The notes beneath the pieces are model-generated. The model searched no databases, was not told the DNA's origin, and saw only the letters and a list, made by a program, of their open reading frames with translations. Of a DNA stretch of 64,000 nucleotides, positions 2,847-34,900 are shown in pieces. The stretch's first letter is position 1. Every line of letters starts with the position of its first letter. Source of the stretch: an uncultured Flavobacteriaceae bacterium. Lineage in GTDB: Bacteria; Bacteroidota; Bacteroidia; Flavobacteriales; Flavobacteriaceae. Location of the stretch: assembly GCA_964453045.1 (NCBI GenBank), contig CAYVNR010000006.1, forward strand, positions 83,747-147,746, given 5' to 3'. A program made the position numbers and the translations under genes.

Positions 2847-2999
2847 AAATAGGTCTCAAATCAAGATTTGAAGCGTTTGGCTTTACTATTACCCAGACTT
2901 TTACATCAAAATAAATGAACACGAAACGTCAGTAACTAACTTACAATTGTATTGAAAGGTGTTAACTGGGATGCTTCATAAGACCAAAGATTACAAAAG

Positions 3000-4625: not shown

Positions 4626-4692
4626 ACTTAAAGTTTGAGCAACCACATTAGTGATAAAAAACCACAAAAGCTTTTATTAGAGAACCTTGTAA

Positions 4693-5718: not shown

Positions 5719-5802
5719 AAAAACTGCTTTTTGTAAATGTACATTTTTTTTCTTACTCGCCTTTATATTATGTACTTTTGTGCCTTTCAACATATTGAAA
5801 TT

Positions 5803-7893: not shown

Positions 7894-7949
7894 TTGCCCA
7901 TAATGAGTATAGTTTTTGTGTTATCTTTATTAGATAAACCTCACGAATT

Positions 7950-10340: not shown

Positions 10341-11243
10341 ATGCTGAAAATAGCAAACCATTCAATTTATAAACACCCATTACCAAAAGGACATCGTTTT
10401 CCAATGGAAAAATATGAGTTATTGCCACAGCAACTCCTCTACGAAGGTACCTGCAATAGCAATAATTTTTTTGAACCCACCAAACCAAATGATAAACATA
10501 TTTTGGCGGTTCATGAGCCAGAGTATTATTACGACTTGGTCAACATCACTTTAAACCAGCGAGCTGCGCGAAAACTGGGTTTCCCCTTAAGCGAAAGCCT
10601 AGTTGAACGTGAAGTGTTTATTGCAGATGGCACAATAAAAGCTAGTGAATTTGCTTTAAAACACGGTATCGCCATGAATGTAGCGGGAGGTACGCACCAT
10701 GCCTACACCAATCGTGGCGAAGCGTTTTGTCTATTAAATGACCAAGCCATTGGCACACGCTATCTTCAATACAGAAAGCTTGCGGAAAAAGTTCTAATCG
10801 TAGACTTAGATGTGCATCAAGGCAACGGAACGGCTGAAATTTTTCAAAATGACCGTTCCGTTTTTACATTTTCCATGCATGGTAAAGGCAATTATCCTTT
10901 TAAAAAAGAACAAAGCGATTTAGACATCGCATTAGAAAATAACACTGACGATGACACTTACCTCACTATTTTAAAAGACACCTTACCAAAACTCATTAAT
11001 CAATACCAACCAGATTTTATATATTACCTCTGCGGTGTTGATGTTATAGCAACTGATAAGTTAGGAAAATTGGGGCTTTCCGTGCAAGGCTGCAAAGAAA
11101 GAGACCGTTTTGTTTTACAACAGTGTAGAATGAATAATATTCCCGTTATGTGTAGTATGGGCGGAGGTTATTCCCCAGACATAAAAACTATAGTTGATGC
11201 GCATGCCAATACATTTAGATTGGCTCAAGAGATTTTCTTTTAA
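10341..11243 (+). CDS. Histone deacetylase-family protein
   Basis: GGTHHA, DLDVHQGNGT and GGGY motifs. Confidence 0.93.
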   Translation: MLKIANHSIYKHPLPKGHRFPMEKYELLPQQLLYEGTCNSNNFFEPTKPNDKHILAVHEPEYYYDLVNITLNQRAARKLGFPLSESLVEREVFIADGTIKASEFALKHGIAMNVAGGTHHAYTNRGEAFCLLNDQAIGTRYLQYRKLAEKVLIVDLDVHQGNGTAEIFQNDRSVFTFSMHGKGNYPFKKEQSDLDIALENNTDDDTYLTILKDTLPKLINQYQPDFIYYLCGVDVIATDKLGKLGLSVQGCKERDRFVLQQCRMNNIPVMCSMGGGYSPDIKTIVDAHANTFRLAQEIFF

Positions 11244-20116: not shown

Positions 20117-20299
20117 TTATTTGCCCAACATTAAAAGTTCGCTGCAAACCACTTCGGTTGTGTAACGCTTTATTCCATCCTTGTCTTCCCAAGTGCGTGT
20201 TGTAAGCTTGCCTTCTATCGCCACTTCTTTGCCTTTGCCTACAAATTTCTCTACAATTTGGGCCGTTTTTCCCCAAGCTACAATATTGTGCCATTGTGT
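20117..20299 (-). pseudogene. ssb: 3' half of single-stranded DNA-binding protein gene, interrupted by island insertion
   Basis: Minus strand reads TQWHNIVAWGKTAQIVEKFVGKGKEVAIEGKLTTRTWEDKDGIKRYTTEVVCSELLMLGK*, hallmark SSB OB-fold motifs. Upstream in this frame there is no ATG before a stop inside the recombinase gene. Confidence 0.9.
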
Positions 20300-21762
20300 T
20301 GACCATTCTGACCTAATTCTAAAGCAGATAGCGGTGCTATCTGTTTTAATTTGAAGTTTATGGTTTTACCATCAAACACAATACGCTCTGTAACTGATTG
20401 AATGATAAATCGTTTTTCTGGTCTACTTAAGCTATTCCAATTTTGGTAGAGGTCTTTTGATTTATCGAGCACTAAAGACAGTGAGCCTTTAGCCCGTTGT
20501 ATCTCTTCTAGCTCTTTATTTAGAGTACTTAAATTAGCTTCCAATTGAAGCTTTTGTTCAAATAATGGCTCATAGTGATGCTTAAATCCTTCTGTTGGTA
20601 TTTGTCCTTCGATATTCAGAGTAATGAGCCTATCCATTTTCACTTGAACCTCTTCTATACTACTCTCTGCAAATGTAATTTCTTCCTTTTTTAGTTTAAT
20701 CTCATTGTCTGAAGATTGAGTATACTGATTAATTTCTTCTTCTGAAATGATAAACTTTTCTATCCGAGTTTTGAAAACATCTTCTAAATCATCTTTATCA
20801 ATCCTCAGTCTACACTTTGGACACGAATACTTATTTGTTTTACTCTGAACTGACATCTTATGCCCGTTGATACAGTACAAGTAGCTTGTGAAAAGATGCA
20901 CCCTCTGATTTAGAGGTTTCGTCTGACTACTATTTTCTTCTTGTTCTCTTATAATTGCATTACAAGCTTCCCATGTTTCATCTGAGACAATTCTTGGGCA
21001 GGGACTAAAAATCCATTCAGATTTTGGTTTTATTCCTGTAGGATTGTCTTCGCTAGGCTTTCCTTTGTAATTTGATTTTCTTATCCCTTTGGCATCTGTA
21101 TTTTTAAGCAAACGTGACACCGACACATCTGACCACTTGCTGTTATTTCGAGTACGGTACCCTCGCTCATTGAGTATTCGCGCAACTGTACTTCTCCTTT
21201 TGTGTTGAAGGAACAGATCATACATAAGTTTTCTAATTGGTGCTTCTTCTTCGTTAATTACTAAACGGGCATTTTGTATTTTGAAACCATACGAGGCTTT
21301 TCCACCAGTCATCTTTCCCATAGCTCTTCGAGTTTCAATTGACGCCATCATCCGCTCTAGGTTGTTCTCACGCTCCCACTCTGCCATCCCTGCAATCATC
21401 GTATAGAAAAACCTTCCACTTGACGTGGATGTATCGATTGATTCACTCAAGGAAATCATATTGGCGTTGTACTTTCTGAAGTGTTTTGAGTAAAAGAGAA
21501 GCTCATCAGTGTTTCGAGCAAGTCTAGCAAGTTTGCTAAAAATGAGTCCTTGTATCTTTCCTGTTTTCACATCCTCGAGCATTTCTTGGGTCTCTTTGAG
21601 ATGAAGCGTAGACTTTCCCGATATTCCAGGAAGGGTGTACACCTTAACAACGTTCCACTGCTTTGAGGCTGCGTACATCCTTCCTCTTCTTTCGTGGGTT
21701 TCTGGACTCTCCTTATTTTTCTCATCGATAACGCTCACGCGAACAAATATTCCAACATTCAT
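20278..21762 (-). CDS. Large serine recombinase (integrase 1)
   Basis: IFVRVS catalytic motif, SKLARLAR, recombinase domain, Zn ribbon (CINGH...CPKC), coiled coil. Confidence 0.94.
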   Translation of the reverse strand: MNVGIFVRVSVIDEKNKESPETHERRGRMYAASKQWNVVKVYTLPGISGKSTLHLKETQEMLEDVKTGKIQGLIFSKLARLARNTDELLFYSKHFRKYNANMISLSESIDTSTSSGRFFYTMIAGMAEWERENNLERMMASIETRRAMGKMTGGKASYGFKIQNARLVINEEEAPIRKLMYDLFLQHKRRSTVARILNERGYRTRNNSKWSDVSVSRLLKNTDAKGIRKSNYKGKPSEDNPTGIKPKSEWIFSPCPRIVSDETWEACNAIIREQEENSSQTKPLNQRVHLFTSYLYCINGHKMSVQSKTNKYSCPKCRLRIDKDDLEDVFKTRIEKFIISEEEINQYTQSSDNEIKLKKEEITFAESSIEEVQVKMDRLITLNIEGQIPTEGFKHHYEPLFEQKLQLEANLSTLNKELEEIQRAKGSLSLVLDKSKDLYQNWNSLSRPEKRFIIQSVTERIVFDGKTINFKLKQIAPLSALELGQNGQHNGTIL

Positions 21763-21828
21763 GTTTTCAGTGTTTTACATCTAAGTTACTTCATTTATAG
21801 GTTAGTTAAAAGTTAAAATTGGTAATAT

Positions 21829-24800
21829 TCATTTGCGCTTAAAAAGCATTTTTGCAATCTGTTCTCGAATATTCTTAGAGTTTGAAATTGTCTTGCTTTC
21901 AAACTCTGTTGTTATACGAAATCCTTTGACAACTTCACCTCTTATCTGAGGCTCCTCACTTATAGTATCTAGTACCTCAGCCACTTCATGTGGTTGAATG
22001 TATGTAGTAAGGCTAAAATCTTTTTCCGATAGTTGTTTTTGGGCTAAATTCTGTATTGCGTTAAGATGGCTTCTATTTTTTGAAACCATTACAACAGGAA
22101 TATATCCGTTAGCCAAGCACTTCTTGATGTTTTTTACTTCGTAGTGGGGCGTATTGGTAACCGAAATCTCAAAAGCTATCCTTACAACACCTCGCTCTAA
22201 TGCGATATCAATTCTGCCACCATCACTCGTTTCTTTTTCCACCGTAGCTAGGAAGCCTCTTTGTTGACCCAACTTTTTGATCTTTGTTTGCAAGTACTTA
22301 TGGTCTCTTATCACAGTTGAACTTTCTTCTTGTTCAATCAGTCCCTGCCTTTGTTCTTCGGAAATTCTTACGCTATCATCATTATTTGTTCTAACCTCTT
22401 CCTCATTCTGAAGCTTAATATTCTCTTGAGAAACTAAAGGCTTTTTCTCTTCAACAACTTTTTCTAGACGCGTCTCTTTTTTTGTAACGCTCTTTTGTTT
22501 GGGGAGTAAATCAACGATGATGTTATTTAAATCGGATTTCTTTTGAGCATATTTCTCTCTCGTGTTTTTGATAATGTAATTTCTTGTATCCTCTCCGCCT
22601 TGTTGAATATCACTTAACCTACGTGTGGTTATATTAAAATCATTTTTCGCTGAACCTACTCTCACAATAGCCTCACCAACTCCAAGATTCTGTAAATCTG
22701 ACTGATCAAAGTATGAAAAACCAGATTCCAGACGTTTTGCATCATTGTCACCAAGCCTAAAGCAGATGCGGATATATGGGTTTGAAATAACTGAATTTAA
22801 AGTTTTGGTATCATCTATTTGAGCTAGTTCTTGATGGGCTAAGATTAGCCCAAGTCCATACTTCCTCGCTCCTGAAAGTATTCTGGTAATACTAGGCGTG
22901 ATGAAATTTTGAAATTCATCAAGGTAAATGTAATATGGGTGTCTTTGTGATTTGGGAAGTGACTGCCGACCTTGTGCCACTTGGTTAAATTTTGAAAGGA
23001 ATAGTGACCCCAAGAGAAAGCTGTTTTCCTCACCGATTAAGCCTTGTGATAGTTTGATAAGCACAATCTTTTTTTCTTCAATACAGGCTCTAAAATCAAT
23101 ACCCTTGGTTTGAGCCAACATATATCGAACAACTTTTGGACGAAGAAACGTATCGATGCGTGTAAGTAATGGAGCGATGCCTTTACGTACCATAGCGTAC
23201 TCGTTGTTCCAATAGTAGTGAATGGACGGGTCTTCTACTGAGGTTAGAAACTCGTTTCTGAATTTTTCTTCTAATAAAAAACGTTTTAGTTCAATGAGTG
23301 TCCCGTCTCGACTACTTTCTAAAAAAGTATTAATGGCATTTGATAACACGGCCGACATGTTATCACCCCATGCGGTGGCGTGGCGCTTGAATGATGATAC
23401 CAGGTCCGAACCTAAGACTATCTTCTCAGTATCAGTTGTTGCGCCTAGTAAGTTAAAACCAATAGCGTACTCACTATCTGAAGGGTCTATGAGGATTACA
23501 TCTTGTATCCTATGTTCTGGTACACGGGCCAACACATCTTCTACAATGTCACCGTGGGGGTCGAATAATGCACAGCCATTTCCGTTTTTCATGTCTTCAA
23601 TGAGCATGTTGGCAATCAAAGTTGATTTTCCGACTCCAGTGGCTCCAATAATATGGGTGTGTCTCAACCTCATCTCATCATTTAAGGTCACCTCTGTTTC
23701 TCTTGCACTATGTTCATTGGCACCCAATACATACCTTTGATTCAGAACCGATGGTGGTGCTTTCTTGGTCTTACCACTTTGCAAGCCCAACTTTTGTGAT
23801 ACTACGGTTTTGTTTGGATAGTGAACAAAGGTATTGAGTTCATCTGCATTGAGAATAAATCCCAACCGGTTACTTAAACGGTGATGCAAATTATACTCAT
23901 GAAAATTGTAATCATATCCATGGTTCGATAACGGGATAAGCTTGTTATGTTCTGATGTTGAAGTAATGGAAACGCTTCGCATTAATTCATTTGCCAGATA
24001 CTCACTTCTGAAATCATTTTCTCCTTGTGCGGCAACTCTCATTATTACTGAAAATAGAGGTTTTGAAATCTTGCTTTTTGCAGAACCCGTCATATATGGT
24101 GCATCAGAAAAAAAAGAACCTCCAGCCCCATCGGAAACAGATGCCGTTATATCTTTTGCCAAGGGCGAAGAAACTCCTTTAAATAGTACTTGAAATACCG
24201 CAATATCATCTTGGACAAGTGCATCCATTGTTGCAATGATAGAGGTGAGAGGATCAATGCTCAGTGAATCAACGGTAGCAATGGGAAGCATGAACTCACA
24301 GTTTATACCAAAGTCGGCAATCGCAATGGTACTCTCGTTACTGAAACCAAAGTTACCTACCTCAATCTCTCGTATAATTACCGATGGATAATATGCCTTA
24401 AAAAGAGATATAACGTGGTTCCTATCACGCTCACTGCATACTATTTGAATAACAATGTTTTCTTTGCCACCTATTATTTCAAACGAAAGAGCATGCTCTG
24501 AAAACGATAGCATACTGAGAAACTCAACATTTCTATTTGAAAATATCTCAGTTCCTTTAGGAAAAGAAATTGATAATCCAATCAAATGAGGTTGGTCATC
24601 AAAGACTAAATAATCTGGATTCAGTTCCGATTGTTCTAATTCAATCTCTTTTTGCTTGTCCGATGGAGATAAAAGGTTGCTGAATCTATCTAGTAAGGAA
24701 GGTACTCTGCCATCATCAAAGTCGTATTGAAAGTCGGTTAAATGCTTAAAAGGAATGTGTGGTGGTTCTATATACACAGGGGTTTCAAAGTGATAATAAC

Positions 24801-24864
24801 CTCGATACTTATATTCCCACTGATAGAAGTTTAACGTCGCTTCATCACTAGCAGACAAACCCAT
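21829..24864 (-). CDS. TraD/VirD4-like (HerA/FtsK superfamily) ATPase with C-terminal PD-(D/E)XK-like extension
   Basis: Walker A GATGVGKS, Walker B YIYLDEFQNF, ARKYGL; C-terminal HKYLQ...GRIDIAL...IAFEISV. Confidence 0.82.
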   Translation of the reverse strand: MGLSASDEATLNFYQWEYKYRGYYHFETPVYIEPPHIPFKHLTDFQYDFDDGRVPSLLDRFSNLLSPSDKQKEIELEQSELNPDYLVFDDQPHLIGLSISFPKGTEIFSNRNVEFLSMLSFSEHALSFEIIGGKENIVIQIVCSERDRNHVISLFKAYYPSVIIREIEVGNFGFSNESTIAIADFGINCEFMLPIATVDSLSIDPLTSIIATMDALVQDDIAVFQVLFKGVSSPLAKDITASVSDGAGGSFFSDAPYMTGSAKSKISKPLFSVIMRVAAQGENDFRSEYLANELMRSVSITSTSEHNKLIPLSNHGYDYNFHEYNLHHRLSNRLGFILNADELNTFVHYPNKTVVSQKLGLQSGKTKKAPPSVLNQRYVLGANEHSARETEVTLNDEMRLRHTHIIGATGVGKSTLIANMLIEDMKNGNGCALFDPHGDIVEDVLARVPEHRIQDVILIDPSDSEYAIGFNLLGATTDTEKIVLGSDLVSSFKRHATAWGDNMSAVLSNAINTFLESSRDGTLIELKRFLLEEKFRNEFLTSVEDPSIHYYWNNEYAMVRKGIAPLLTRIDTFLRPKVVRYMLAQTKGIDFRACIEEKKIVLIKLSQGLIGEENSFLLGSLFLSKFNQVAQGRQSLPKSQRHPYYIYLDEFQNFITPSITRILSGARKYGLGLILAHQELAQIDDTKTLNSVISNPYIRICFRLGDNDAKRLESGFSYFDQSDLQNLGVGEAIVRVGSAKNDFNITTRRLSDIQQGGEDTRNYIIKNTREKYAQKKSDLNNIIVDLLPKQKSVTKKETRLEKVVEEKKPLVSQENIKLQNEEEVRTNNDDSVRISEEQRQGLIEQEESSTVIRDHKYLQTKIKKLGQQRGFLATVEKETSDGGRIDIALERGVVRIAFEISVTNTPHYEVKNIKKCLANGYIPVVMVSKNRSHLNAIQNLAQKQLSEKDFSLTTYIQPHEVAEVLDTISEEPQIRGEVVKGFRITTEFESKTISNSKNIREQIAKMLFKRK

Positions 24865-24870
24865 ACCCCA

Positions 24871-25413
24871 TTAGTTTCTTTTGAAAATATCGTTCAAAAC
24901 TGGCTTAGGTATCTCCTCATCCAATTTAATTCCTGATGTTTCAGTTATGTGATTTAATTTCGACAACATTATTTCATGACAATACTTCATGAACATACTT
25001 GAGGTATCTATTCTGTACATGGTAATAGGAAATAGCTTACGCATAAGGTATGATCCGATAAAAGGAATACTTCCAACTAAAATCTCTCTTTTACGCTGTT
25101 TATAAAATAAATGCCAACTGAGAAAAAAACCATTGCCAAACGGAGCTGCACACATGTAGAAATTATATTCTCTCCAATTTATTTTAAAATATTTACGAGA
25201 TAAGGAAAATACACCTCCCTCTTTTTCAATTACTTCCCCTGAACCACATTCTCTAATTTTATTGTCTGTAACACCTTGTTTTAAATGCCCATAAAACTCT
25301 TGGGAAGAGTAATTGAAATTATCTATCAGGTGTGACCAGTGAGAGTGAAAAGTACCTTTATTATTTGCGAATGCAATTATTGTTAGTACTATAAATATCA
25401 ATATGAATAACAT
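24871..25413 (-). CDS. Membrane-anchored hypothetical protein
   Basis: N-terminal TM segment (MLFILIFIVLTIIAFA), directly upstream of the ATPase gene; start moved to 25413. Confidence 0.7.
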   Translation of the reverse strand: MLFILIFIVLTIIAFANNKGTFHSHWSHLIDNFNYSSQEFYGHLKQGVTDNKIRECGSGEVIEKEGGVFSLSRKYFKINWREYNFYMCAAPFGNGFFLSWHLFYKQRKREILVGSIPFIGSYLMRKLFPITMYRIDTSSMFMKYCHEIMLSKLNHITETSGIKLDEEIPKPVLNDIFKRN

Positions 25414-25417
25414 AACT

Positions 25418-25879
25418 CTATTTTTTAATAAATAATTTTGACCAACTTTTTTCTTCGCTCTTGAGATGTAATAAATAGACTCCATTTGAAAGTTTACCTA
25501 CGTCTATTACAACTTCACTATTCTCAATACTTGTACTATAGCTTTCCATGGTTCGTCCATTGACGTCATATATTGTAATCTTAACATCTTGAGTGCTAAA
25601 GTCAGAAGGAAGCTTAATGTTTAAACAATTTTCTGTTGGGTTTGGATAAACCGTAATAACATCTTTTAGTGTTTCTTCATCTATGCTGAGTGTCTCGATA
25701 TTCAACTGCGTGCGGTTACCTAAATTATCATACACATAGTTATGTGTCGAACCATCATTAAAAACAACCTGAACCAAACGGTTCAAGTTATCGTAAGAGT
25801 ATGTTGTCGTCTCTTGTTGGATTTGGGCATTTGCTGAAAAACAAATAAATAATAATAAATACGTTATTTTTATTCTCAT
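25418..25879 (-). CDS. Small YD-repeat + T9SS type A CTD protein
   Basis: Signal peptide, YSYDNLNRL...YVYDNLGNR, then YPNPT...LSNGVYLLHL...KLFIKK CTD; start moved to MRIKI. Confidence 0.85.
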   Translation of the reverse strand: MRIKITYLLLFICFSANAQIQQETTTYSYDNLNRLVQVVFNDGSTHNYVYDNLGNRTQLNIETLSIDEETLKDVITVYPNPTENCLNIKLPSDFSTQDVKITIYDVNGRTMESYSTSIENSEVVIDVGKLSNGVYLLHLKSEEKSWSKLFIKK

Positions 25880-25883
25880 AAGT

Positions 25884-26228
25884 TTATGATTTATATGAAC
25901 CAAGACACTTTTTTGCATGATTCGTTATTCTTATCCAATTTTGATCCTCAAGTATATCACTATCAGATTTATACTTATTCTCAGCTAAATATTTTGAAAG
26001 TATGATATCTAAATGAGATAGATCTTCATATAATTCCTTACCAATATTTTCTTTTTCTTTTTTTAAAAAAAAATCAAAACAAAAATCGTCATACAAAAAA
26101 GCTATATCCTCATCAAATGAAGAAACAGTTTCACTATTTTTAACTAACCAACTCTTCTTTTGTTTATCTATATTTGCTATATTTTTTATAGACCAATAGA
26201 TATTGTAATACCAATTTAATTTGTTCAT
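25884..26228 (-). CDS. Probable immunity protein of Rhs toxin 1
   Basis: 114 aa, very AT-rich, begins 11 bp after the Rhs stop. Confidence 0.7.
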   Translation of the reverse strand: MNKLNWYYNIYWSIKNIANIDKQKKSWLVKNSETVSSFDEDIAFLYDDFCFDFFLKKEKENIGKELYEDLSHLDIILSKYLAENKYKSDSDILEDQNWIRITNHAKKCLGSYKS

Positions 26229-26239
26229 AATTCTTTTAG

Positions 26240-29200
26240 TTAAAAGTCATTAATTGGGATATGCGCTTCAGGGACATTACCACTTGGCAAAGGATTTCCA
26301 TTAATATCCACAAAAACACCATCAACACTACGCTTCATATATGCATTCCTTTGGTAAGAATTCGGTGAGTTTGGGTTGCCTGGCATCAATCTAATATGGT
26401 TTCCTGTAGGATTATTAGGATCAAAGTACTTAACACCATTACCTTTTTTTGTTGGTCTTGATATCCAACCATTAGGGATTAAGCCCCCTACTTTTTTTCC
26501 GTATTTCCCTACTGTAGCACCCCAACCAAAAATAGGAATCATAGCTGCACTACTCAAAGCAGCATTTAAACCATCACCTTTTATTGCATATAATATAGCA
26601 TTATATCCGTCAGCAAATTCTCCAATACCTGGAACTAAGCCTAATATATCAGCACCGATATGATAAACATCAACAGTAGTTTCAAGTACAGGAATAACTC
26701 TATTGTCAATAAATTCATCTGACAACTTTCCTCTTGGATCAAACCTACTGATTGGATTATTATCCGCGTAAGGATATAAATTAGTATGCCAAATAGGGTC
26801 TTCAGACAAGAACCTGCCAATTGATGGCTTGTAGTAACGAGCTCGCATGTAGTATAAATCATCTGTTTCATACTCTACGCCATAGATGCCTACATATCGA
26901 AATCGGTTAGTATCGTTTTCAGGTTCTAAAGCTCTAGTCACCTTTCCAAAATCATCATAGCGGTATTGGTGCGTTATGTTACCCAACTCATCTGTCATCA
27001 TAACCGTACTTCCCCTTATATCACCATGGTAGTAGTGCAAATCCCCATCGGGTTGCATTCTCGCAAGAACCATTCCATTGGAACTGTATATATAATATTT
27101 TTTAGTGTTGTTATTGCTATCCAATTCAACGAGTATATTATCCAATCTTACATCTCTAACATACTTTGTAGTTTCTCCATTTCTGACTGACTCTACACGT
27201 TGATTGTACGGATTATAATCAAAATTAAAAGTATTGTCAACATCTGTACAACTCGCTAATCGATCATCAATATCAAAGGTATAAGATACTTCAGAGCCTT
27301 CGCTAATGGTGTTGCCATCATCATCCAAGTCGTAATTCACACCACCAGCGAAGGTAATTTGATTATTATCATCATAGCTGTATGAGACGTTAGTGGAATT
27401 AGTAGAGTTTCCAGGATTAAAGCCTGGTGGAATCGGAGAAAACCATTCATAGGTTTGAGTTATATTTCCACGACTATCAAATTCATGGTGACTTGTATAT
27501 AATGCAGAATTGTCACTTAGATCTTCATGCTGTATAAAATCTAATCTGCCAGCATCATCGTATTCATAGTTAATGCGTATGCCATTACCTAAATCGATCC
27601 ACCTGACCCTGTCGTCATCATGATATTCGTATTCAGCTATAGTGGTATCACCGCTTCCGACATTTCGGTTGAGGGTTATTAACCATATCCTGTTTTTATT
27701 ATCATACTGATAATCCACCTCTACATCTATTCCGTTTATACTCGGATACAACAACTCCTCAACTTGACTGGTATCTGTATAGTCGTACTCTACATCAAAA
27801 CCATGTACCGTAGTTACTCTCTCTAATTGATTTAGATTATCATAATCAAACTCCATTGTTCCATAATCATTGGTAATATCTTCAACAAGGTTTCTGTCAT
27901 TATAGTCGATATAAGTTATTGTCCCTGTTTCCTCCAATCGTCCATCATTATCATATTCGTAATCAATGTCCAAGCCTGATGGTTTGGTGATTTCTTCCAA
28001 ATACCCTTCGTCTCCATAGTCATATTGGGTTACCAGATTTCCAAACTGCTCCTCGATTACCCTGTCTTCATCATCGTAGGTAAATGACGTAGCAACATTA
28101 TTTGCGTTGATGATTTCAGTTAAGTTATCATTCTCGTCATAATCATACGCTGTTACAAAACCCCCAGAGTTTATCATTTGGGTAATGTTATCATTGTCGT
28201 CATATTGATATGAAGAAATAAGCCCATTGTCATCTCTTTCAAGGAGGCGATTTACTCCATCGTAAGTAAATGTACTGCTGATACTTTCAGGTGCATCCAT
28301 CGTGGCTACTGCACCATCATTTTCATATGTATAGTTTATGGTGATCCCGTCTTGATTCGTTTGGGATAACAGTTGACCATACGTATCATAAGTGAACAGT
28401 ATAGAATTATTGTAGGCATCTATAATCTCAATGAGATTCTCATCATTGTCGTAAACAAATTCAGTAATATTACCCTCTGGGTCAATATATTCCACAAGAT
28501 TATTATCGTTGTCATATTCAAATTCTTCAACCACATCTCCATTTTCTTTATCAATTCTAGTAATATTTCCATCACTATCATATTCATATTCAACATAGAC
28601 TCCGTTTAAGTTTGCATCAGTTGGACGTAAAACGTTGACCCCTGAAGAAGGATAATTGACTACAATCTCGTCCGTATCGCTTGAATAATTCGTAACCAAT
28701 CCCTTATCATTGAACGTATAGTTTTCATGAAACATCCCACCACTTGGTAATGGTGTTTGTACTCCGGAAGTCAGAGCATTATTTTCAAAATCAAACTCAA
28801 CATTGACTTCGATAGGATCATCACCATCAATCTGGTATTGGCGTAGTTTTCCATTGTTGTCGTACTCAGCTTCAATTTGATTCCCCCTAGGAAGATCAAT
28901 TCGGAACAGCAAGTATTGTCCATAGCTGCTATCTTGATAGTATTGGTAAACCGTTAGATTGTCCTTTGCATCTTCAAAGCTTATCAAAATTGGGTAGTCG
29001 AAAGCTGAGCCTGAAGAGGTTCCCGAATATTCAAAACGTATATCCCTGTCAATAGGATCCTCAATTTTATCAACAAGATCAGTGCCATCTAGATATTCAA
29101 ATTCTAATCGTTTCCCAGATGGTGCAATGACTTCTTCAATACGTCTAGTATCGTCCTCTTCTGCACTTTCATATTCTATGTTGATTTCGTTACCATTGGG

Positions 29201-30226
29201 ATCCTCAATCTCAACGAGATAAAAAATATCTCTAGCGTTATCCAATTGCTCAAATCGATAACGTACCTGGTTCTTTTTAGTAATGTCAATCTCGTCCCCT
29301 TCAGAATCATCAAAGTTATCATAGACACCCAAGGTTTCGTATTCGTTTTCATCTTCGTTATATATATCAATTGTTCCATCTGGCCAAATGATGTAGTAAT
29401 AGCTAACAGAATCTTCACCGACATTGTTCTTTCTGACGATGTAGGCATTATAGGTATGTGACCAACCTCTTCCAAGCGGTTGGATAGAGTAAAAAGATTG
29501 GGGCATTTCCACCATTTGTGTGCTGTAGAAATGAGAAAAGTTTAAGTTCATTTTTCTGTCAGGAATCACAAAGCTGTTCTTTGCGTAATGGTTGAACACA
29601 CCCTGTTCGATCCCTCTGGAAAAGCCCAATGTATCGTATGCATACGTTCCTATTGTGAAGTAATTGTCAATATCCAATAACTCATTTTGAGTTGGGGCGG
29701 TTACATTGGCTTCAAGAAAATTGATGTAATCTGAAGTACCGCTAAAAGAAAGTCCTGACTCTGGTTGCAGTTGAGATGTATTTGGAAGCATTCCCAAAAC
29801 ATAGGCAGTGACTATGTGGTCATAATAGATGGTATTTTGGTTCACGTCACTATATGGTTCAGAACCATTGGTTATCAAGGGTACGTTAAACGCCTCGATT
29901 AGTGTTTTGATGATACTGGCATGAAACGGAATTTGGCCTATATCAAAATTTGGATCTTCTCTCCTCAATACGGAAATGCCATCTTGAAATTCAAGATAGC
30001 TCAATAACCTAGCCTTTTTGCTAAAGTCCGAATCATCATCCATATCCACAAAAATATTTGGGAAAGATGCTGCTGGATAATCATCAGGATCGGCACCGTT
30101 ACCATATATAGAGTTGAATATAGCATTTGTCAGTTCAAACTTTGTGGTTTGGGAATGTATTTGGTTACCAATAAAAAGGTAGCACAAAAACAATAGGTAT
30201 AGATGGTAATTTTTTTTCACGATCAA
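26240..30226 (-). CDS. Rhs/YD-repeat polymorphic toxin 1 (SLH-like region, PT-TG-like pre-toxin, Ntox30-like tip)
   Basis: Signal peptide, many YD repeats, RYYKPSIGRFLSEDP...PISRFDPRG core, DILGLVPGIGEFADG pre-toxin motif, C-terminal RLMPGNPNSP...EAHIP. Confidence 0.9.
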   Translation of the reverse strand: MIVKKNYHLYLLFLCYLFIGNQIHSQTTKFELTNAIFNSIYGNGADPDDYPAASFPNIFVDMDDDSDFSKKARLLSYLEFQDGISVLRREDPNFDIGQIPFHASIIKTLIEAFNVPLITNGSEPYSDVNQNTIYYDHIVTAYVLGMLPNTSQLQPESGLSFSGTSDYINFLEANVTAPTQNELLDIDNYFTIGTYAYDTLGFSRGIEQGVFNHYAKNSFVIPDRKMNLNFSHFYSTQMVEMPQSFYSIQPLGRGWSHTYNAYIVRKNNVGEDSVSYYYIIWPDGTIDIYNEDENEYETLGVYDNFDDSEGDEIDITKKNQVRYRFEQLDNARDIFYLVEIEDPNGNEINIEYESAEEDDTRRIEEVIAPSGKRLEFEYLDGTDLVDKIEDPIDRDIRFEYSGTSSGSAFDYPILISFEDAKDNLTVYQYYQDSSYGQYLLFRIDLPRGNQIEAEYDNNGKLRQYQIDGDDPIEVNVEFDFENNALTSGVQTPLPSGGMFHENYTFNDKGLVTNYSSDTDEIVVNYPSSGVNVLRPTDANLNGVYVEYEYDSDGNITRIDKENGDVVEEFEYDNDNNLVEYIDPEGNITEFVYDNDENLIEIIDAYNNSILFTYDTYGQLLSQTNQDGITINYTYENDGAVATMDAPESISSTFTYDGVNRLLERDDNGLISSYQYDDNDNITQMINSGGFVTAYDYDENDNLTEIINANNVATSFTYDDEDRVIEEQFGNLVTQYDYGDEGYLEEITKPSGLDIDYEYDNDGRLEETGTITYIDYNDRNLVEDITNDYGTMEFDYDNLNQLERVTTVHGFDVEYDYTDTSQVEELLYPSINGIDVEVDYQYDNKNRIWLITLNRNVGSGDTTIAEYEYHDDDRVRWIDLGNGIRINYEYDDAGRLDFIQHEDLSDNSALYTSHHEFDSRGNITQTYEWFSPIPPGFNPGNSTNSTNVSYSYDDNNQITFAGGVNYDLDDDGNTISEGSEVSYTFDIDDRLASCTDVDNTFNFDYNPYNQRVESVRNGETTKYVRDVRLDNILVELDSNNNTKKYYIYSSNGMVLARMQPDGDLHYYHGDIRGSTVMMTDELGNITHQYRYDDFGKVTRALEPENDTNRFRYVGIYGVEYETDDLYYMRARYYKPSIGRFLSEDPIWHTNLYPYADNNPISRFDPRGKLSDEFIDNRVIPVLETTVDVYHIGADILGLVPGIGEFADGYNAILYAIKGDGLNAALSSAAMIPIFGWGATVGKYGKKVGGLIPNGWISRPTKKGNGVKYFDPNNPTGNHIRLMPGNPNSPNSYQRNAYMKRSVDGVFVDINGNPLPSGNVPEAHIPINDF

Positions 30227-30319: not shown

Positions 30320-30335
30320 TTACCCCTAGGGGTAA
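30320..30335. promoter_or_regulatory. Perfect 16-bp palindrome upstream of Rhs 1
   Basis: TTACCCCTAGGGGTAA, 94 bp upstream of the Rhs 1 start. Confidence 0.55.
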
Positions 30336-30371: not shown

Positions 30372-32078
30372 CTACTCCTTTGAAAGTGTTTTTTGGAATG
30401 TCAAAAACTCTTTTTGATATATGGAAACCGAGACAAGCTTATCAATTCTATCCAAACTGTTGTCATAAGCTTTGAGCTTTTTATATAGTTTGTTGCGTCG
30501 TTTTTTTATGGCGCCTTCTGTAACCGACTTTAGTTTTTCCGCAATCTCAGCCTCTGAAAACCCTTGGGATTGCATAGTCCAAAACTCAATTAAACTATCT
30601 GTTAAGTTGTACTTCTGCTTTAATTTGGCATTGAACCGCTCCCTATAATTTTGCCCAAGACTCGGTTCACGAATGCTGAAAACCTCTTTTTGAGATTCTT
30701 TAAGTGTATCTATAATGTGAATAAGCTCACTCTCCCTTCTTCTTTTTTTGTTCATGAAAAGAAGATAGGCAAACAATAGAACCAGAGCAAAAACCGAAAG
30801 TGCCAAAATAACATAGAGACGTTTCCGATTGTTCACACGCTGTTCACTGATAATATCATCCTTTTCGTTGAGTTCATATTTTATCCTGATGAAATCTTCT
30901 TTGTAGCGTCTATCCACGAGATCCAAGCTATCTCTTACGGCAATATACTCTTTGAATTTATCTTTTATTCTGTTATCAGGGTAAAGCTCGGCCATAAATT
31001 CCAATGACACGAGATAATCTCGGTACTTCTTGGTCTTGTGTGCAATTCGTTCAGCCCGTTCTATGTATGCCACAGATGTGTCAATGCTAATATCCTTATA
31101 GTATTCTGCTAGATGAATGTAACTCATGATGATACCGTGATCATCAGATTCTCGTTCTCGAATATTAAGTGCCTGCTCAAGGTTGGTTAACACACTATCT
31201 AATCGGTTGGTTCTAAAATGGGCATGGGCCATGTTGTCTATCAACGCTGCTTTGGTTTCTGGATAAGAGCTCAAAATACTGTCATTTTCAGAAAGCCCTA
31301 AATTAAAGTACCTTATGGCTTTTTGATAGTTTTGAGCGTCCTTGTACGACTTACCGATATTGTTCAACGACTGAATAGCATAAATTGGTTTATCCTTAAT
31401 TTCTATACGCAATCTGTATGCCTTTTCATGGTATTCTATTGCTTTATCATAGTTTTTCAGATTATTGTATATAATCCCCAAATTGTTATAAACAGAGGAT
31501 ATACGCCTTGTGTTTTTTGTATTCTTTAAGAAATCCAATGCTCTGAAGGAAGAAATTTCGGCACCTGAATAATCATGCACATTTTTCTGGAGGATGGCAG
31601 TATTGAGCATTATTTTTCCTGCGCTCAGTGAATCACCGATGGCTTCATAGAGTTTAAAGCTCTTGTAATAATAATAAAACGTACTATCGACTGCATGGTG
31701 CCTTTTGTAGAATGCCGACTTGTACTCAAGAACCTTGGCAACAGATGCCGTATCAAATCTGCGCTGAGAAAATTCTAAACGTTGTTGAGCATACTTTTGA
31801 AAGTTTAGTGAATCTTTAGATTTATAATGCAGGTTTACAAATTTTTTAAGTGCAAAACCCATCAGGGAATCATCATGAAACTGTTTTGCATACAGGTACA
31901 GTTTATGGTTGCTTATTATCCTGTGCCGCAAGTCCAATTTAGAATTGTTGACTCTTTGTACAAGATTATGTATTGAGTCAATCTCTCGTACGCTTCCCTC
32001 ATTTTGTGAAAGAAGATTTGAAAAAGGGCTAATTAAAATAAAAAGGAAAATTAAACTAGACCTCATACGTAAATACAC
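30372..32078 (-). CDS. TPR-TM-HTH (LuxR-like) one-component regulator
   Basis: Signal-like N-terminus, TPR repeats (YNNLGIIYNNLKNYDKAIEYH), TM segment LYVILALSVFALVLLFAYLLF, C-terminal GFSEAEIAEKL..VTEGAIKKRRNKLYKKL. Confidence 0.82.
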   Translation of the reverse strand: MYLRMRSSLIFLFILISPFSNLLSQNEGSVREIDSIHNLVQRVNNSKLDLRHRIISNHKLYLYAKQFHDDSLMGFALKKFVNLHYKSKDSLNFQKYAQQRLEFSQRRFDTASVAKVLEYKSAFYKRHHAVDSTFYYYYKSFKLYEAIGDSLSAGKIMLNTAILQKNVHDYSGAEISSFRALDFLKNTKNTRRISSVYNNLGIIYNNLKNYDKAIEYHEKAYRLRIEIKDKPIYAIQSLNNIGKSYKDAQNYQKAIRYFNLGLSENDSILSSYPETKAALIDNMAHAHFRTNRLDSVLTNLEQALNIRERESDDHGIIMSYIHLAEYYKDISIDTSVAYIERAERIAHKTKKYRDYLVSLEFMAELYPDNRIKDKFKEYIAVRDSLDLVDRRYKEDFIRIKYELNEKDDIISEQRVNNRKRLYVILALSVFALVLLFAYLLFMNKKRRRESELIHIIDTLKESQKEVFSIREPSLGQNYRERFNAKLKQKYNLTDSLIEFWTMQSQGFSEAEIAEKLKSVTEGAIKKRRNKLYKKLKAYDNSLDRIDKLVSVSIYQKEFLTFQKTLSKE

Positions 32079-32134
32079 GATTTTATCTTGTTGGTAGTCT
32101 CAAATATAAAAAATATTGTAGCTTTATAAAGTAA

Positions 32135-32162
32135 AAATCCCTGACGAATCAGGGATTTAAAT
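32135..32162 (-). terminator. Intrinsic terminator after the small peptide gene
   Basis: Minus strand AAATCCCTGA-TTCG-TCAGGGATTT followed by a T-run. Confidence 0.7.
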
Positions 32163-32176
32163 TTGAGGATGATTAG

Positions 32177-32326
32177 TTATTGATCCTCATCTGGTTCAGC
32201 GGGATCATCCACCTCATCTCCACCTGTCGCATACGTTGGAGTTTCGATGTGATCATCGTCTGGACTACATGACATTATTCCCATTGTAAAGCACATAAGA
32301 ATAATGAAGATTCCTTTTTTAATCAT
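32177..32326 (-). CDS. Small lipoprotein-type peptide (49 aa, absent from ORF track)
   Basis: MIKKGIFIILMCFTMGIMSC-SPDDDHIETPTYATGGDEVDDPAEPDEDQ*: basic N-terminus, hydrophobic core, lipobox-like Cys20, acidic tail, own terminator. Confidence 0.72.
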   Translation of the reverse strand: MIKKGIFIILMCFTMGIMSCSPDDDHIETPTYATGGDEVDDPAEPDEDQ

Positions 32327-32460: not shown

Positions 32461-32495
32461 ATTCCGGAAGATTCCGAAAGGTTCCAGAATGTTCC
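32461..32495. repeat. Four helically phased RTTCC repeats
   Basis: ATTCCGGAAG ATTCCGAAAG GTTCCAGAAT GTTCC with a 10-bp period, in the divergent promoter region. Confidence 0.55.
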
Positions 32496-32527
32496 ATTTT
32501 CAACTATAAAATTCAAATATTACAGGT

Positions 32528-33775
32528 ATGAATAAGGGTTTTAAAGAGCTTTATGAGTTATATAATCAAGCTAAATCCAATGCTCTGTTAATAACTTTAG
32601 ATAATCCGACAACGGGAAACATAAAGAAGTGTTTGATAGATGCTGTTAACGATAATGAATTATCAGAAAAACACAAAAAGGCTATCTTTTATTTTTTGTC
32701 TGACCCTCATAAAGCAAACCATCTGGATAAATTGACTAATCTGGATCTCATTCAACTGATTTTAGAAAGTAAATTAGACGTATACAGACCCATATCAGGT
32801 TTTTTTAAGGGCAAGCCAAAGAAAATAGACAAGCATGGTGGGCGTACCATCCTTAATCTAATTCTAGAATCAGATTTAAAGAAAACCGCAGAACCTCATT
32901 TAAAAGAAAGTGTAGTGCAAAATCAACCATCAGAAAAAGAAGATAAAGCTTTTGCTGAAAAGAGCCGCGATTCTGGTAAGTTTTACATCACAGTTACTGG
33001 AACTGTTGTTGCCCTTGGGTTGGTCCTGTTCTTTACATACTTGGCAATAAATAAAAATGATAGTTCAACAAAAGCGGACACCAATAATTATCATATTGAA
33101 AACTACGTGGTTTCACAGAAGGATAGAATACCCGAAAACCAATTGATCGATCATTTCAGTTATCAGGACAAACCAGAACTTTGGTATATCTCATACAAGG
33201 GACAAACAGAATTCTATTCAAAACCAGGCATTCATAAAATAACTAAAAGACCCCTTAAGCCTGTTAGCAAAGAAATAATCTCGGCATATAAAGATCAAAG
33301 TGATGCAAATAACCCTAAAACAAAAATTGAAGAAGGCAAACATAGAAGCCCTGTCGACGATAACTCAACGGTTAAAGAATTAGCTGTCATCATTTTTAAT
33401 AATGAAAGTAAATTGGATATTGAAGCCCAAAATCATTTAAAGAAACTCCTTAAAAATGATTACACCTTTAGGGCGATTGATTACTTGAGCAATGGTTTGT
33501 CAGCCCAAATTGTTGACCAGATAAAGTCATTCAATTTTAATTCTCTTGATATTAATGAGGGTGAATCAGAGTTTATTCTTATTGGAGAAATTGATTATAG
33601 CTTCTCGCAAAGCGATATTCAGAAAGATATGACAGTATGTAGACTATCTCTAAACTACTCAATTATTTCTTACAATAATAAAAAAGAAATGGACAGTAAT
33701 TCCATATCAGTATCGGGAATCGGATTTTCAGAATCCAATGCAAAACAAAACACCATTAAAAAAATCACATTATGA
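32528..33775 (+). CDS. Single-pass membrane hypothetical protein
   Basis: Cytoplasmic N-terminus, TM at about residues 155-175, periplasmic WY...EFY...GIH..T.RPLKP motif. Confidence 0.7.
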   Translation: MNKGFKELYELYNQAKSNALLITLDNPTTGNIKKCLIDAVNDNELSEKHKKAIFYFLSDPHKANHLDKLTNLDLIQLILESKLDVYRPISGFFKGKPKKIDKHGGRTILNLILESDLKKTAEPHLKESVVQNQPSEKEDKAFAEKSRDSGKFYITVTGTVVALGLVLFFTYLAINKNDSSTKADTNNYHIENYVVSQKDRIPENQLIDHFSYQDKPELWYISYKGQTEFYSKPGIHKITKRPLKPVSKEIISAYKDQSDANNPKTKIEEGKHRSPVDDNSTVKELAVIIFNNESKLDIEAQNHLKKLLKNDYTFRAIDYLSNGLSAQIVDQIKSFNFNSLDINEGESEFILIGEIDYSFSQSDIQKDMTVCRLSLNYSIISYNNKKEMDSNSISVSGIGFSESNAKQNTIKKITL

Positions 33776-34695
33776 AGACACAGTTTCTACCTCTACTGCT
33801 GTTAATTACAGTAACCATAAATGCTAACCTTTTTGCCCAAAGTGACTATTCCGATTTTGATAGAAAAATGATTTCATTGGCTGAAGAAGTAGCAAACCGC
33901 ATTCAGTCTAAAAATAAAATAAAAGTAGCCCTTGGGGATTTTACCGATAGCTTTAAAGAAAAAAACACTCTCGGAGACTATATAGCTGATGACTTTTCCA
34001 TTCACTTTACCAATGCAAGTGACAATCTCGAGGTAACCGATAGGCATAACTTAAAACAGTTAATGAAAGAGCACAAGTTAAATGCGGAAGGGTATATTGA
34101 CCCCAGCACCGCAAAACGAATAGGAATGTTAATTGCTGCCGATGCGATTGTAACGGGGACCGTGGATATTGGGTTACATTCTTTAAGGATTAGGATAAAG
34201 ATCATTGATACTGAAACGGGGCTGCACTTTGCCGCTGCCTTGAGGAATTTGCCCATCGATGAAAACATAAAGGTCATTTTGAAAGACGCGGGCTTTGAAA
34301 GCTCGGTTAAACCAGAGGGAAAGCGCATCAATACAAATGAGGAAAGTAACAATAAACGTACGACGAATAAAAAATGTGAATCTTTGAAAACTGGAGATTA
34401 TTATTTTGAAAACAAGTCCCAATATAGCTACCTCATAGATATTAAAAGTTCAATTAACAGTTATAAAAAGACCATTACCGTCAGCAAAGGCCAAACAACA
34501 GCTTTACAGGACCTACCCTCGGGAACCTATACGTTCAAAATGTATAAAAATAACCTACGAACCACAGCCGGGCCGACTCAACAAGGTAGTTTTAGACTAA
34601 AATCCTGCCAATCTATCACTTATTCTATCCTCAAATCAAAAGAGTATGATATAACCGACGATTTCTATAAAGCAGTAAAGAAAAAACGTAATTGA
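33772..34695 (+). CDS. FlgO/CsgG-like domain secreted protein
   Basis: Signal peptide; VALGDF...LEVTDRHNLKQLMKEHKL...AKRIGMLIAADAIVTGTV pattern. Confidence 0.68.
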   Translation: MKTQFLPLLLLITVTINANLFAQSDYSDFDRKMISLAEEVANRIQSKNKIKVALGDFTDSFKEKNTLGDYIADDFSIHFTNASDNLEVTDRHNLKQLMKEHKLNAEGYIDPSTAKRIGMLIAADAIVTGTVDIGLHSLRIRIKIIDTETGLHFAAALRNLPIDENIKVILKDAGFESSVKPEGKRINTNEESNNKRTTNKKCESLKTGDYYFENKSQYSYLIDIKSSINSYKKTITVSKGQTTALQDLPSGTYTFKMYKNNLRTTAGPTQQGSFRLKSCQSITYSILKSKEYDITDDFYKAVKKKRN

Positions 34696-34884: not shown

Positions 34885-34900
34885 CCCCTAGTGGGTTAAC
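34885..34900. promoter_or_regulatory. Motif related to the 30320 palindrome, upstream of the Rhs 2 operon
   Basis: CCCCTAGTGGGTTAAC versus CCCCTAGGGGTAAC. Confidence 0.4.

Follow-up and report, generated by a model that had tools for sequence, protein, structure and literature searches.

We analyzed a stretch of 64,000 nucleotides of DNA from an uncultured Flavobacteriaceae bacterium (the window; GenBank assembly GCA_964453045.1, contig CAYVNR010000006.1, positions 83,747 to 147,746), in which a small open reading frame (ORF) for a lipoprotein-type peptide, a terminator, a gene for a membrane-anchored one-component regulator and the gene for the toxin Rhs1 follow one another in this order, on the minus strand throughout. 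The 49-amino acid (aa) pre-peptide gene occupies 32177..32326, with the signal peptide encoded at 32270-32326, the lipobox cysteine (Cys20) at 32267-32269 and the acidic tail ATGGDEVDDPAEPDEDQ at 32180-32230. It is followed by an intrinsic terminator (32135..32158, minus strand) with a 10-bp stem, a UUCG loop and a T run, 3' of which the intergenic sequence reads TATATTTG (32101..32108, minus strand), a candidate Bacteroidota -7-type promoter box (TAnnTTTG) of the regulator gene. The regulator gene (30372..32078, minus strand) encodes a signal peptide (32007-32066), about nine tetratricopeptide repeat (TPR)-like repeats (30984-31973), a stalk helix with a transmembrane segment (30678-30971, transmembrane part 30756-30818) and the core of a LuxR/GerE-type helix-turn-helix (HTH; 30474-30605). 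The palindrome ACCCCTAGGGGT (30322..30333, without strand), a candidate operator, lies 39 bp past the regulator stop codon and ~95 bp ahead of the start of Rhs1 (26240..30226, minus strand), which has a Sec signal peptide and is the first gene past the palindrome. The peptide, its presumed receptor with the DNA-binding output, and the candidate operator are all packed into 2.1 kb. An earlier note on this DNA had described a small lipobox-Cys, acidic-tail ORF with its own UUCG terminator, upstream of a co-oriented signal peptide-TPR-transmembrane-HTH gene that precedes Rhs1, and all of these elements were recovered: the regulator matches Pfam TPR_12 (E 3.8e-20) and has one transmembrane helix and a C-terminal HTH, and Rhs1, the next gene, matches RHS_repeat (8e-27) and the Rhs-associated core domain. 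As judged from comparative sequence analysis, the peptide gene and the regulator gene constitute a conserved pair in marine flavobacteria, most likely a peptide-receptor switch on a toxin-carrying mobile island.

The small ORF is a conserved lipoprotein-type peptide gene

The 49-aa product (MIKKGIFIILMCFTMGIMSCSPDDDHIETPTYATGGDEVDDPAEPDEDQ) divides into a signal part, MIKKGIFIILMCFTMGIMSC, and a mature part, SPDDDHIETPTYATGGDEVDDPAEPDEDQ. The signal part has the features of a lipoprotein signal, namely a positively charged n-region (MIKK), a hydrophobic stretch (GIFIILMCFTMGI) and an M-S-C lipobox, and lipidation is predicted; the Cys is followed by a tail of 29 residues, 12 of them acidic and none basic. 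Across 56 family peptides, the residue at -1 is Ser in 45 and Ala in 10, and that at -3 is mostly Leu or Phe. Pfam and NCBIfam gave no match for the peptide. Because the peptide, used as the query in a word-based search of 5.8 billion proteins, retrieved only itself (as a 35-aa call), its relatives were located through synteny: 24 homologues of the regulator were aligned (alignment A1), and one genome per species was then scanned. Ten full-length loci with an HTH-type regulator were compared, from Flavivirga, Aequorivita, Psychroserpens, Patiriisocius, Kordia (two), Tenacibaculum, Polaribacter and two uncultured lineages. In nine of them, an ORF of 47-59 aa lies on the same strand 21-122 nt upstream of the regulator gene, and its product ends in the tail motif [YFQ][AS]TG(G)DE[VI]DDPxEPDxD. 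A relative from the same genus keeps the full arrangement, with a regulator 54% identical and a 54-aa peptide that agrees with that of the window in its signal peptide and Cys and in its tail, YATGGDEIDDHTEPDEDN.

With this relative included, small lipoprotein-like ORFs beside TPR-transmembrane-HTH homologues, which the earlier note had suggested looking for, are kept in 10 of 11 orthologous genome loci, and five more HTH-type loci on metagenome contigs carry one. When the HTH-type peptides were aligned (alignment A2), S19, C20, T34, G36, E38, D40, D41 and P45 were invariant. The ratio of nonsynonymous to synonymous differences (pN/pS) was 0.30 against the two nearest homologues (L023 and L024) and 0.15-0.75 across 18 pairs; synonymous sites were close to saturated. 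The only version from this contig in the public protein collection is the 35-aa call, which would be without the signal peptide; we favor the 49-aa form because its N terminus is conserved among homologues. We considered whether the 49-codon frame could be a chance ORF, or a cis-acting leader that has no functional product, given that the frame is short, that the genome is AT-rich and that public gene callers list just the 35-aa version. However, the signal peptide, the Cys and the tail are kept in at least 15 HTH-type loci and in dozens of loci of related sensor kinases (see below), the length differences among homologues are all in frame, pN/pS is below 1, and homologues are annotated as genes in RefSeq, under the label "hypothetical protein." The conservation data effectively refute this reading already, and we regard it as exceedingly improbable. 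The earlier note had let its proposal stand or fall with conservation of the ORF, and the ORF is conserved. We conclude from these comparisons that it is a genuine exported-peptide gene under purifying selection.

The terminator hairpin of the peptide gene, AAATCCCTGA-TTCG-TCAGGGATTT, lies 18 bases past the stop codon and is followed by a T run; our scan scored it as terminator-like. A hairpin that differs in sequence is found at the same place in nine of ten orthologous loci, and 45 of 56 peptide-sensor pairs have a long hairpin with a T run past the stop codon of the peptide gene, its place being kept and its sequence varying. This implies that the peptide gene is a separate, probably strongly expressed unit and that the sensor gene has a promoter of its own. 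TAnnTTTG is the consensus of the Bacteroidota -7-type promoter, and it occurs at the equivalent position in L023, L025, L026, L027, L029 and L030.

Further, we note that one HTH-type peptide, encoded upstream of 3001 on the metagenome contig TARA_B110000285_G_scaffold48687_1 (L118), carries the tail motif as a tandem duplicate (…YATGDDADDPAEPDEEN…ATGDDADDPAEPDDVD), as if one precursor held two copies of a ligand. Two kinds of processing or modification of the tails were considered and set aside. First, processing at a double-glycine leader is unlikely, as the GG is not conserved and most tails read T-G-D. Second, the motif of general O-glycosylation, D-[ST]-[ALVIMT], is not conserved in the tails.

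The peptide gene is paired with TPR sensor genes across Flavobacteriaceae

The same scan returned 20 loci of paralogous TPR-transmembrane-histidine kinases, and in 16 of these an ORF of 50-64 aa lies directly upstream, with a lipoprotein signal, acidic residues past the Cys and a tail of the form "[AST]TG + acidic." Under looser handling of start codons, ~26 of 29 HTH-type and kinase-type genome loci have the peptide ORF, as do 38 of 55 assessable sensors on metagenome contigs. As the background, the same filter applied to ORFs of at least 300 aa in the genome of the window gave 11 of 1445 (0.76%), and only the two beside TPR sensors look genuine. Four small ORFs in this 3.6-Mb genome fit the loose pattern "lipoprotein signal + [ST]G + acidic tail," and two of these precede the pair of most closely related TPR sensors by no more than 100 nt. 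We also ran a hidden Markov model (HMM) of the peptide on 400 genomes of the family. The output was swamped by generic lipoprotein signal peptides, and only the full-length top matches were informative; 13 of the 15 full-length matches examined lie directly upstream of a TPR sensor gene, and the other two are a match at a contig end and an orphan (L095). Ten of the sensors found with the HMM were scanned against Pfam: all ten have TPR_12 and nine have HisKA_3 or HisKA_2 and/or a HATPase_c-type domain, the tenth having no recognized output. The homologues P0029-P0042 are likewise kinases, with TPR, HisKA_3 and HATPase_c.

In a tree of the periplasmic domains alone, the HTH-type sensors group together (98/93 support) as a single clade among the kinases, and the tail motifs of the peptides track the sensor clades. 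The constant partners are the peptide and the periplasmic TPR domain, with an output domain that varies (LuxR HTH, HisKA_3 or HisKA_2). That the peptide gene and the TPR domain stayed paired through an exchange of the output domain is our strongest argument that the two work together. The cassette in the window is the one-component, island-borne branch of a large, undescribed lipopeptide-TPR sensor family of Flavobacteriaceae, the input of which is usually fused to a histidine kinase. In a sample across the class, the pairing was mostly limited to Flavobacteriaceae, and in the literature we found no description of a lipopeptide-TPR sensor pairing or of comparable peptide signaling in Bacteroidota.

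The pairing has exceptions, and these weigh against a functional link: some sensor clades have no peptide gene, one clade of kinases on metagenome contigs being consistently devoid of it, and in Polaribacter (L031) a transposase-like gene stands where the peptide ORF would be. They would suit a small lipoprotein that is not a ligand at all but an independent acidic surface or periplasmic lipoprotein, such as a cation-binding or ToxS-like stabilizing subunit, which travels with the sensor gene only through co-regulation or block inheritance. The promoter and terminator of its own, the related sensors that have no peptide gene, the L031 regulator that is kept where no peptide gene is present and the orphan copy at L095, which has no sensor, are all compatible with such a lipoprotein. 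However, adjacency and orientation persist at 25-55% sensor identity, where synonymous sites are saturated, the pairing survives replacement of the output domain, the tail motifs follow the periplasmic-domain clades of the sensors, and the fold of the neighboring domain is of the peptide-binding type (see below). We consider a non-ligand lipoprotein very unlikely and regard functional coupling of the peptide and the TPR sensor as well supported by these comparisons.

Several related arrangements were seen in passing. The genome of the window has a second pair, on the minus strand of contig C10, in which a 51-aa lipopeptide (MKILKLSIILLSISLISFSCTPEVLEDNLNNNVEDVQATGDDDKVEDGSKD) is encoded 83 nt upstream of a 674-aa TPR histidine kinase (matched at G000:C10:39781-41187). 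At L085 (G395:C1:50000-66000), positions 1884-10903 hold genes for a LytTR protein, a small acidic peptide, a TPR kinase and a NarL-type regulator beside an ABC transporter; by its N-terminal sequence the transporter looks C39-peptidase-like, the kind of exporter seen in bacteriocin and pheromone loci. In another family of the class (f62), related TPR kinases of 554-564 aa (L177, L178 and L189) come after a different small exported ORF rich in Gly, Pro and Asp (…DPGDPGTDPGNGDPGDDGTGGDTG…), which may be an analogous peptide partner outside Flavobacteriaceae.

The periplasmic domain of the regulator resembles peptide-binding TPR solenoids

The regulator is 568 aa long when read from a GTG start, and public gene calls begin at the ATG at 32066 (564 aa). 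Its single transmembrane helix (residues 421-441) is followed by KKRRR and by a C-terminal region of ~100 residues. The N-terminal signal peptide and the single transmembrane helix with KKRRR ahead of the HTH place the TPR domain in the periplasm. The NCBIfam model for FimS (NF053520) matches residues 179-469, that is, the sensor and the transmembrane helix, at 2e-15, with a score of 56 bits against an equivalog cut-off of 600 bits. By its input domain, the regulator thus belongs to the FimS-like sensor family, but its own output is not a kinase.

An AlphaFold2 model of the regulator computed with alignment A1 (mean predicted local distance difference test, pLDDT, 89.1; predicted template modeling score, pTM, 0.70) has 18 helices that form about nine TPR-like repeats at residues 32-361 (numbering of the 564-aa form), followed by a helical C-terminal domain, and a single helix of 98 residues makes up the periplasmic stalk, the transmembrane segment and a cytoplasmic extension. 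The top fold matches in the PDB are TPR domains of LGN/Pins, all solved with a peptide bound (E 2e-9, target template modeling score 0.62-0.72), and Rap proteins with Phr peptides are significant matches at ranks 30-47. Conserved residues recur about every 40 positions in successive A helices (N159, N198/N199, N239/N240, D281/N282 and H322; numbering of the 568-aa form); in 63 sensors, N239, N240 and N282 are invariant, and D281, R307, H322 and E325 are nearly so. LGN holds extended acidic E-P-E peptides in its inner groove through the Asn of its LGN triplets and an invariant Arg (PMC3438535), and the tail of the lipopeptide has an invariant E/D-P-D. The modeled TPR domain thus shares its fold and its invariant Asn ladder with TPR solenoids that bind peptides, which suggests a resemblance in binding mode.

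Two features of the domain are less telling. First, the Asn ladder is equally invariant in 16 sensors for which no upstream peptide gene was detected, which speaks against reading it as a mark of the peptide; by itself the ladder gives no link to the peptide, and we dropped it as a correlate of the peptide gene. Second, the periplasmic domains of the HTH clade have net charges of +4 to +28 and the peptides of -8 to -12, but this complementarity is not decisive because the kinase-type sensors are near neutral.

The output end of the regulator has no kinase domain and consists of the HTH of ~100 aa. As a single sequence, it matches Sigma70_r4_2 (E 1.5e-3) and GerE (E 0.098) in Pfam, both weaker than the cut-offs. 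A profile of 19 C-terminal sequences searched against the PDB returned nearly exclusively LuxR/GerE/NarL DNA-binding domains, each match being weak, among them 4wsz (2.4e-3), GerE (1fse, 5.5e-3), NarL, VpsT, SdiA, EvgA and VraR. The AlphaFold2 model has C-terminal helices at residues 472-486, 490-500, 505-511 and 517-534. In view of the profile matches, the label "LuxR-like" of the earlier note is reasonable but not proven.

The lipopeptide may be bound for the cell surface

From the lipid-modified Cys onward, the peptide of the window reads C-S-P-D-D-D, and the consensus of the 56 family peptides is C-[TSED]-P-[DE]-[DE], with Pro at +3 and Asp or Glu at +4 in 40 and at +5 in 36 (~70%). Published lipoprotein export signals (LES) are C-X-K-(D/E)2 in Capnocytophaga, SDDDD in Bacteroides and SDDFE in Flavobacterium, and the position rule for surface delivery of Bacteroidota lipoproteins is a polar or positive residue at +2/+3 with two acidic residues at about +4 and +5 (PMC5080379). 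The acidic residues at these positions resemble an LES, so that the lipopeptide may be surface-exposed; the Pro at +3 of the window peptide lies outside the published tested variants, which have Lys or another polar residue. A mature lipopeptide bound for the cell surface and not for the periplasm would count against its being the ligand of a periplasmic sensor, which would have to meet it in transit or after release and re-entry. The location of the peptide is the main point that separates a cell-to-cell signal from a reporter of envelope or export state.

As such a reporter of the export status of its own cell, the lipopeptide would have the same binding partners and send no signal to other cells: contact with the sensor would be confined to the passage of the lipopeptide to the surface and to disturbances of lipoprotein sorting or surface export, and the module would report the state of the envelope. 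PorA/PorY, RcsF/IgaA and NlpE/CpxA are known parallels for reporting of this kind. Besides the agreement with the LES position rule of Flavobacteriaceae and Bacteroides, two observations favor a reporter: the peptide tail of the HTH clade is conserved across genera, unlike variable pheromone types, and in the same phylum PorA, a cargo destined for the surface, activates the kinase PorY in the periplasm (PMC12152298). Against a reporter stand the Pro at +3 and the fact that the surface exposure of family members is only predicted; further, a strong separate terminator and an independent promoter would also suit a secreted signal made in excess. We judge that the peptide is quite unlikely to be solely a reporter of export.

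A conserved palindrome lies between the regulator gene and the downstream array

The palindrome ACCCCTAGGGGT occurs once in the 3.6-Mb genome (0.03 copies expected), and 9 of 14 HTH-type loci have the same or a near-identical 12-mer 20-90 bp past the regulator stop codon (background, 0.006 per kb). LuxR/GerE/NarL domains typically bind inverted repeats as dimers. We read the palindrome as a protein-binding site because its sequence is kept at 33-54% regulator identity while the terminators of the peptide genes drift; it is probably the operator of the adjacent, presumably dimeric HTH, ahead of the downstream array. The Polaribacter locus that has no peptide (L031) keeps both the regulator and the palindrome. 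A palindrome look-alike with one extra central base, TCCCCTAGTGGGTT, is found at 34886-34899 (plus strand), ~30 bp upstream of the gene for a protein with a type IX secretion system C-terminal domain (T9SS-CTD) that precedes a second Rhs gene, of 2163 aa, and may be a second site at which this regulator binds.

The array past Rhs1 (20278..26228) is co-oriented on the minus strand and encodes a 114-aa candidate immunity protein, a 166-aa YD and T9SS-CTD protein, a 204-aa membrane protein, a 1011-aa TrwB/TraG-like ATPase and a large serine recombinase. The mobile-island setting asserted in the earlier note is real and the island is integrative, given the serine recombinase and the ATPase, which resembles coupling proteins of type IV secretion systems (T4SS), co-oriented downstream of the regulator. 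In the window, as in 6 of 10 orthologous loci, the gene next after that of the regulator is an Rhs gene of ~1310 aa, and the ATPase (54-62% identity) is encoded 3-7 kb downstream of the regulator in eight of nine further loci tested and also in L023. This indicates that the regulator may govern island functions besides the toxin. The ATPase of the window (21829-24864, minus strand) has a C-terminal extension, and it and the 204-aa membrane protein are found downstream of nearly all HTH-type cassettes (L024-L030 and L032); the genes between the regulator and the ATPase vary (Rhs with immunity and YD-CTD genes, or others), which resembles a cargo slot in a mobile-element backbone.

Not all observations fit an operator that acts on Rhs1, and those that do not are to be set against the switch proposed here. 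Neither of the two Kordia loci has the palindrome, two other loci have degenerate versions, the copy in the window can fold as a weak hairpin and was scored as terminator-like in our scan, and no further copy precedes the peptide gene in the window, so that nothing points to an autoinduction loop. Weak look-alikes upstream of the peptide gene were seen only in L027, L028 and L032, and no consistent spacing from the palindrome to a -7 box was seen among the loci compared. It is conceivable, then, that the regulator does not control Rhs1, that the palindrome is the terminator of the regulator gene or an element boundary, and that Rhs1 is expressed independently while the true target lies elsewhere, for instance in island transfer functions only. 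In addition to the hairpin and the inconsistent spacing, this would account for the gene past the palindrome not being Rhs in L024, L025, L028 and L031 and for the Rhs gene that follows the regulator in Kordia, where the palindrome is missing. However, the terminators of the peptide genes vary freely whereas the sequence of the palindrome is kept across genera, the palindromes of L025, L026 and L028 form just a 5-bp stem and have no T run, the palindrome is unique in the genome, and a 12-bp inverted repeat fits a dimeric LuxR-type HTH. On this evidence, we think it unlikely that Rhs1 escapes the regulator.

Comparison with known systems and proposed mechanism

Peptide signaling via TPR receptors is characteristic of Firmicutes and of the mobile elements they carry. 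As in the RRNPP systems (Rap-Phr, PlcR-PapR, NprR-NprX and AimR-AimP), a pre-peptide of a length close to their 40-50 aa, with an N-terminal export signal, is encoded beside a TPR receptor, the conserved part of the peptide is C-terminal (in the window system this would be the active part), Rap structures are among the significant fold matches, and several of the RRNPP pairs control mobile elements, as might the window cassette, whose island encodes a recombinase and a T4SS-coupling-protein-like ATPase. Unlike RRNPP receptors, which are cytoplasmic and bind peptides that are re-imported (Opp), the receptor of the window is extracytoplasmic, so that no re-import across the inner membrane would be needed. 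Its order is TPR-transmembrane-HTH with a LuxR-type HTH, whereas RRNPP receptors have an N-terminal XRE-type HTH (or a phosphatase/3-helix domain) and then the TPRs, and the peptide of the window has a lipobox, a gene that lies upstream with its own terminator and a tail that is conserved across genera. No RRNPP model of Pfam or NCBIfam matched the regulator. We therefore rejected membership in RRNPP, as the receptor is extracytoplasmic, the domain order is reversed, the HTH is not of the XRE type and LGN is a closer fold match than Rap. The earlier note had proposed a diderm analogue of RRNPP in which an exported peptide is sensed in the periplasm. Of this, an exported peptide gene tied to a periplasmic TPR sensor with a fold of the peptide-binding type stands; the system does not belong to RRNPP itself, and the mature lipopeptide may go to the surface and not stay in the periplasm.

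Other systems resemble parts of the cassette. FimS of Porphyromonas gingivalis (FimS/FimR) likewise has a periplasmic multi-TPR sensor followed by a transmembrane helix, hence the match to NF053520, and the paralogues in the genome of the window as well as most of its relatives are kinases of this type; the output in the window, in contrast, is a DNA-binding domain and not a kinase, and the match reaches 56 of 600 bits. No partner peptide is described for FimS, whose locus lay outside our analysis. The signal of FimS has been stated to be unknown (PMC11053733). LGN/Pins, with its NuMA, Inscuteable and Frmpd peptides, gives the best fold match, shares with the sensor the repeated Asn residues of the N-x-LG/LGN type in the A helices and binds extended acidic E-P-E ligands, to be compared with E/D-P-D in the lipopeptide tail, but it is a eukaryotic cytoplasmic scaffold with 13-16% identity to the regulator, and the analogy is one of binding mode only. 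In PorA-PorY of P. gingivalis, a self-made protein destined for the surface is the ligand of an inner-membrane sensor in the periplasm (PMC12152298); however, PorA carries a T9SS CTD, PorY is devoid of a TPR sensor, and their genes do not form an adjacent pair of the kind described here.

In Proteobacteria, small envelope-anchored proteins adjust the activity of a sensor by binding to its periplasmic portion, as in MgrB-PhoQ, RcsF-IgaA and NlpE-CpxA; these proteins are unrelated in sequence and are not part of a conserved cassette with their sensors, which are not TPR proteins. ToxR, CadC and TcpP are membrane-bound one-component factors that combine a periplasmic sensor and a cytoplasmic DNA-binding domain in a single polypeptide, but their winged-helix domain is N-terminal and inside, whereas the regulator of the window has its N-terminal sensor outside and its C-terminal LuxR-type HTH inside.

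We propose the following mechanism. The pre-peptide would be exported by Sec and lipidated at Cys20 to yield an acidic lipopeptide of ~30 residues with a net charge of -12. Its conserved C-terminal 14-16 residues, TG(G)DEVDDPxEPDED, would be bound as the cognate ligand by the periplasmic TPR solenoid of the adjoining regulator and would lie extended in the inner groove, with the Asn/Asp/His ladder on the peptide backbone and conserved Arg and Lys residues on the acidic side chains. Occupancy would be relayed via the long stalk and transmembrane helix to the cytoplasmic LuxR-type HTH, which would then bind, or release, the palindrome just 3' of its own gene and thereby set transcription of the array, that is, of Rhs1, the 114-aa gene and the genes for the YD-CTD protein, the 204-aa membrane protein and the T4SS-coupling-protein-like ATPase. 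As separate transcription units, each with its own terminator or promoter, the peptide and receptor genes would allow the levels of their products to be set independently. We infer direct binding and its sign, the place where peptide and sensor meet, action on the own cell or on neighbors, and Rhs1 and the other target genes. Taken as a whole, the proposal that the lipopeptide tail is the ligand of the TPR regulator and switches the island array via the palindrome seems to us fairly probable. A broader version, in which Flavobacteriaceae have widespread, so far undescribed ribosomal lipopeptide signals, each encoded with its own terminator upstream of a cognate periplasmic TPR receptor, and in which the acidic tail, released or displayed on the surface, is a cell-to-cell or island-to-island signal that decides expression of the Rhs toxin and the transfer-type ATPase, is speculative and, in our view, somewhat doubtful.

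If this broader version is true, the cassette would be a diderm, extracytoplasmic counterpart of the Rap-Phr or arbitrium control of mobile elements, and the lipopeptides would be the first candidate class of ligands for FimS-type sensors. The comparative data offer a concrete, synthesizable candidate ligand for a large family of TPR sensors, with a 150-bp gene as the genetic handle, and the variant in the window is tractable because everything from the input to the candidate operator lies within 2.1 kb, so that one reporter construct could test the path. Confirmation would link peptide sensing to the expression of interbacterial Rhs toxins and to the behavior of mobile islands in marine flavobacteria.

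Divergent genes and repeats next to the peptide gene

On the plus strand, a divergent gene pair (32528..34695) begins upstream of the peptide gene. Its first gene (32528-33775) encodes a 415-aa protein with a single transmembrane helix and no match in Pfam or NCBIfam, the AlphaFold2 model of which (pLDDT 53) was too poor for a fold search. Members of this family, collected with jackhmmer, are encoded divergently from the peptide gene in 12 loci of both the HTH and the kinase type and may be a third partner. They share a conserved L-x-N-P-T-P near the N terminus and, outside the membrane, W-Y-x-x-Y-x-G-x-x-E-F-Y-N-x-x-G-x-H-P-x-T-x-x-x-L-x-P. The product of the next gene (33772-34695, plus strand) is an exported, CsgG/FlgO-like protein of 307 aa. 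Four direct repeats with an exact period of 10 bp (TTCCGGAA, TTCCGAAA, TTCCAGAA and TTCCATTT) separate the peptide gene from the gene for the 415-aa protein, at 32462-32499 (plus strand); they have no obvious counterpart in L023 and resemble an array of binding sites for another regulator.

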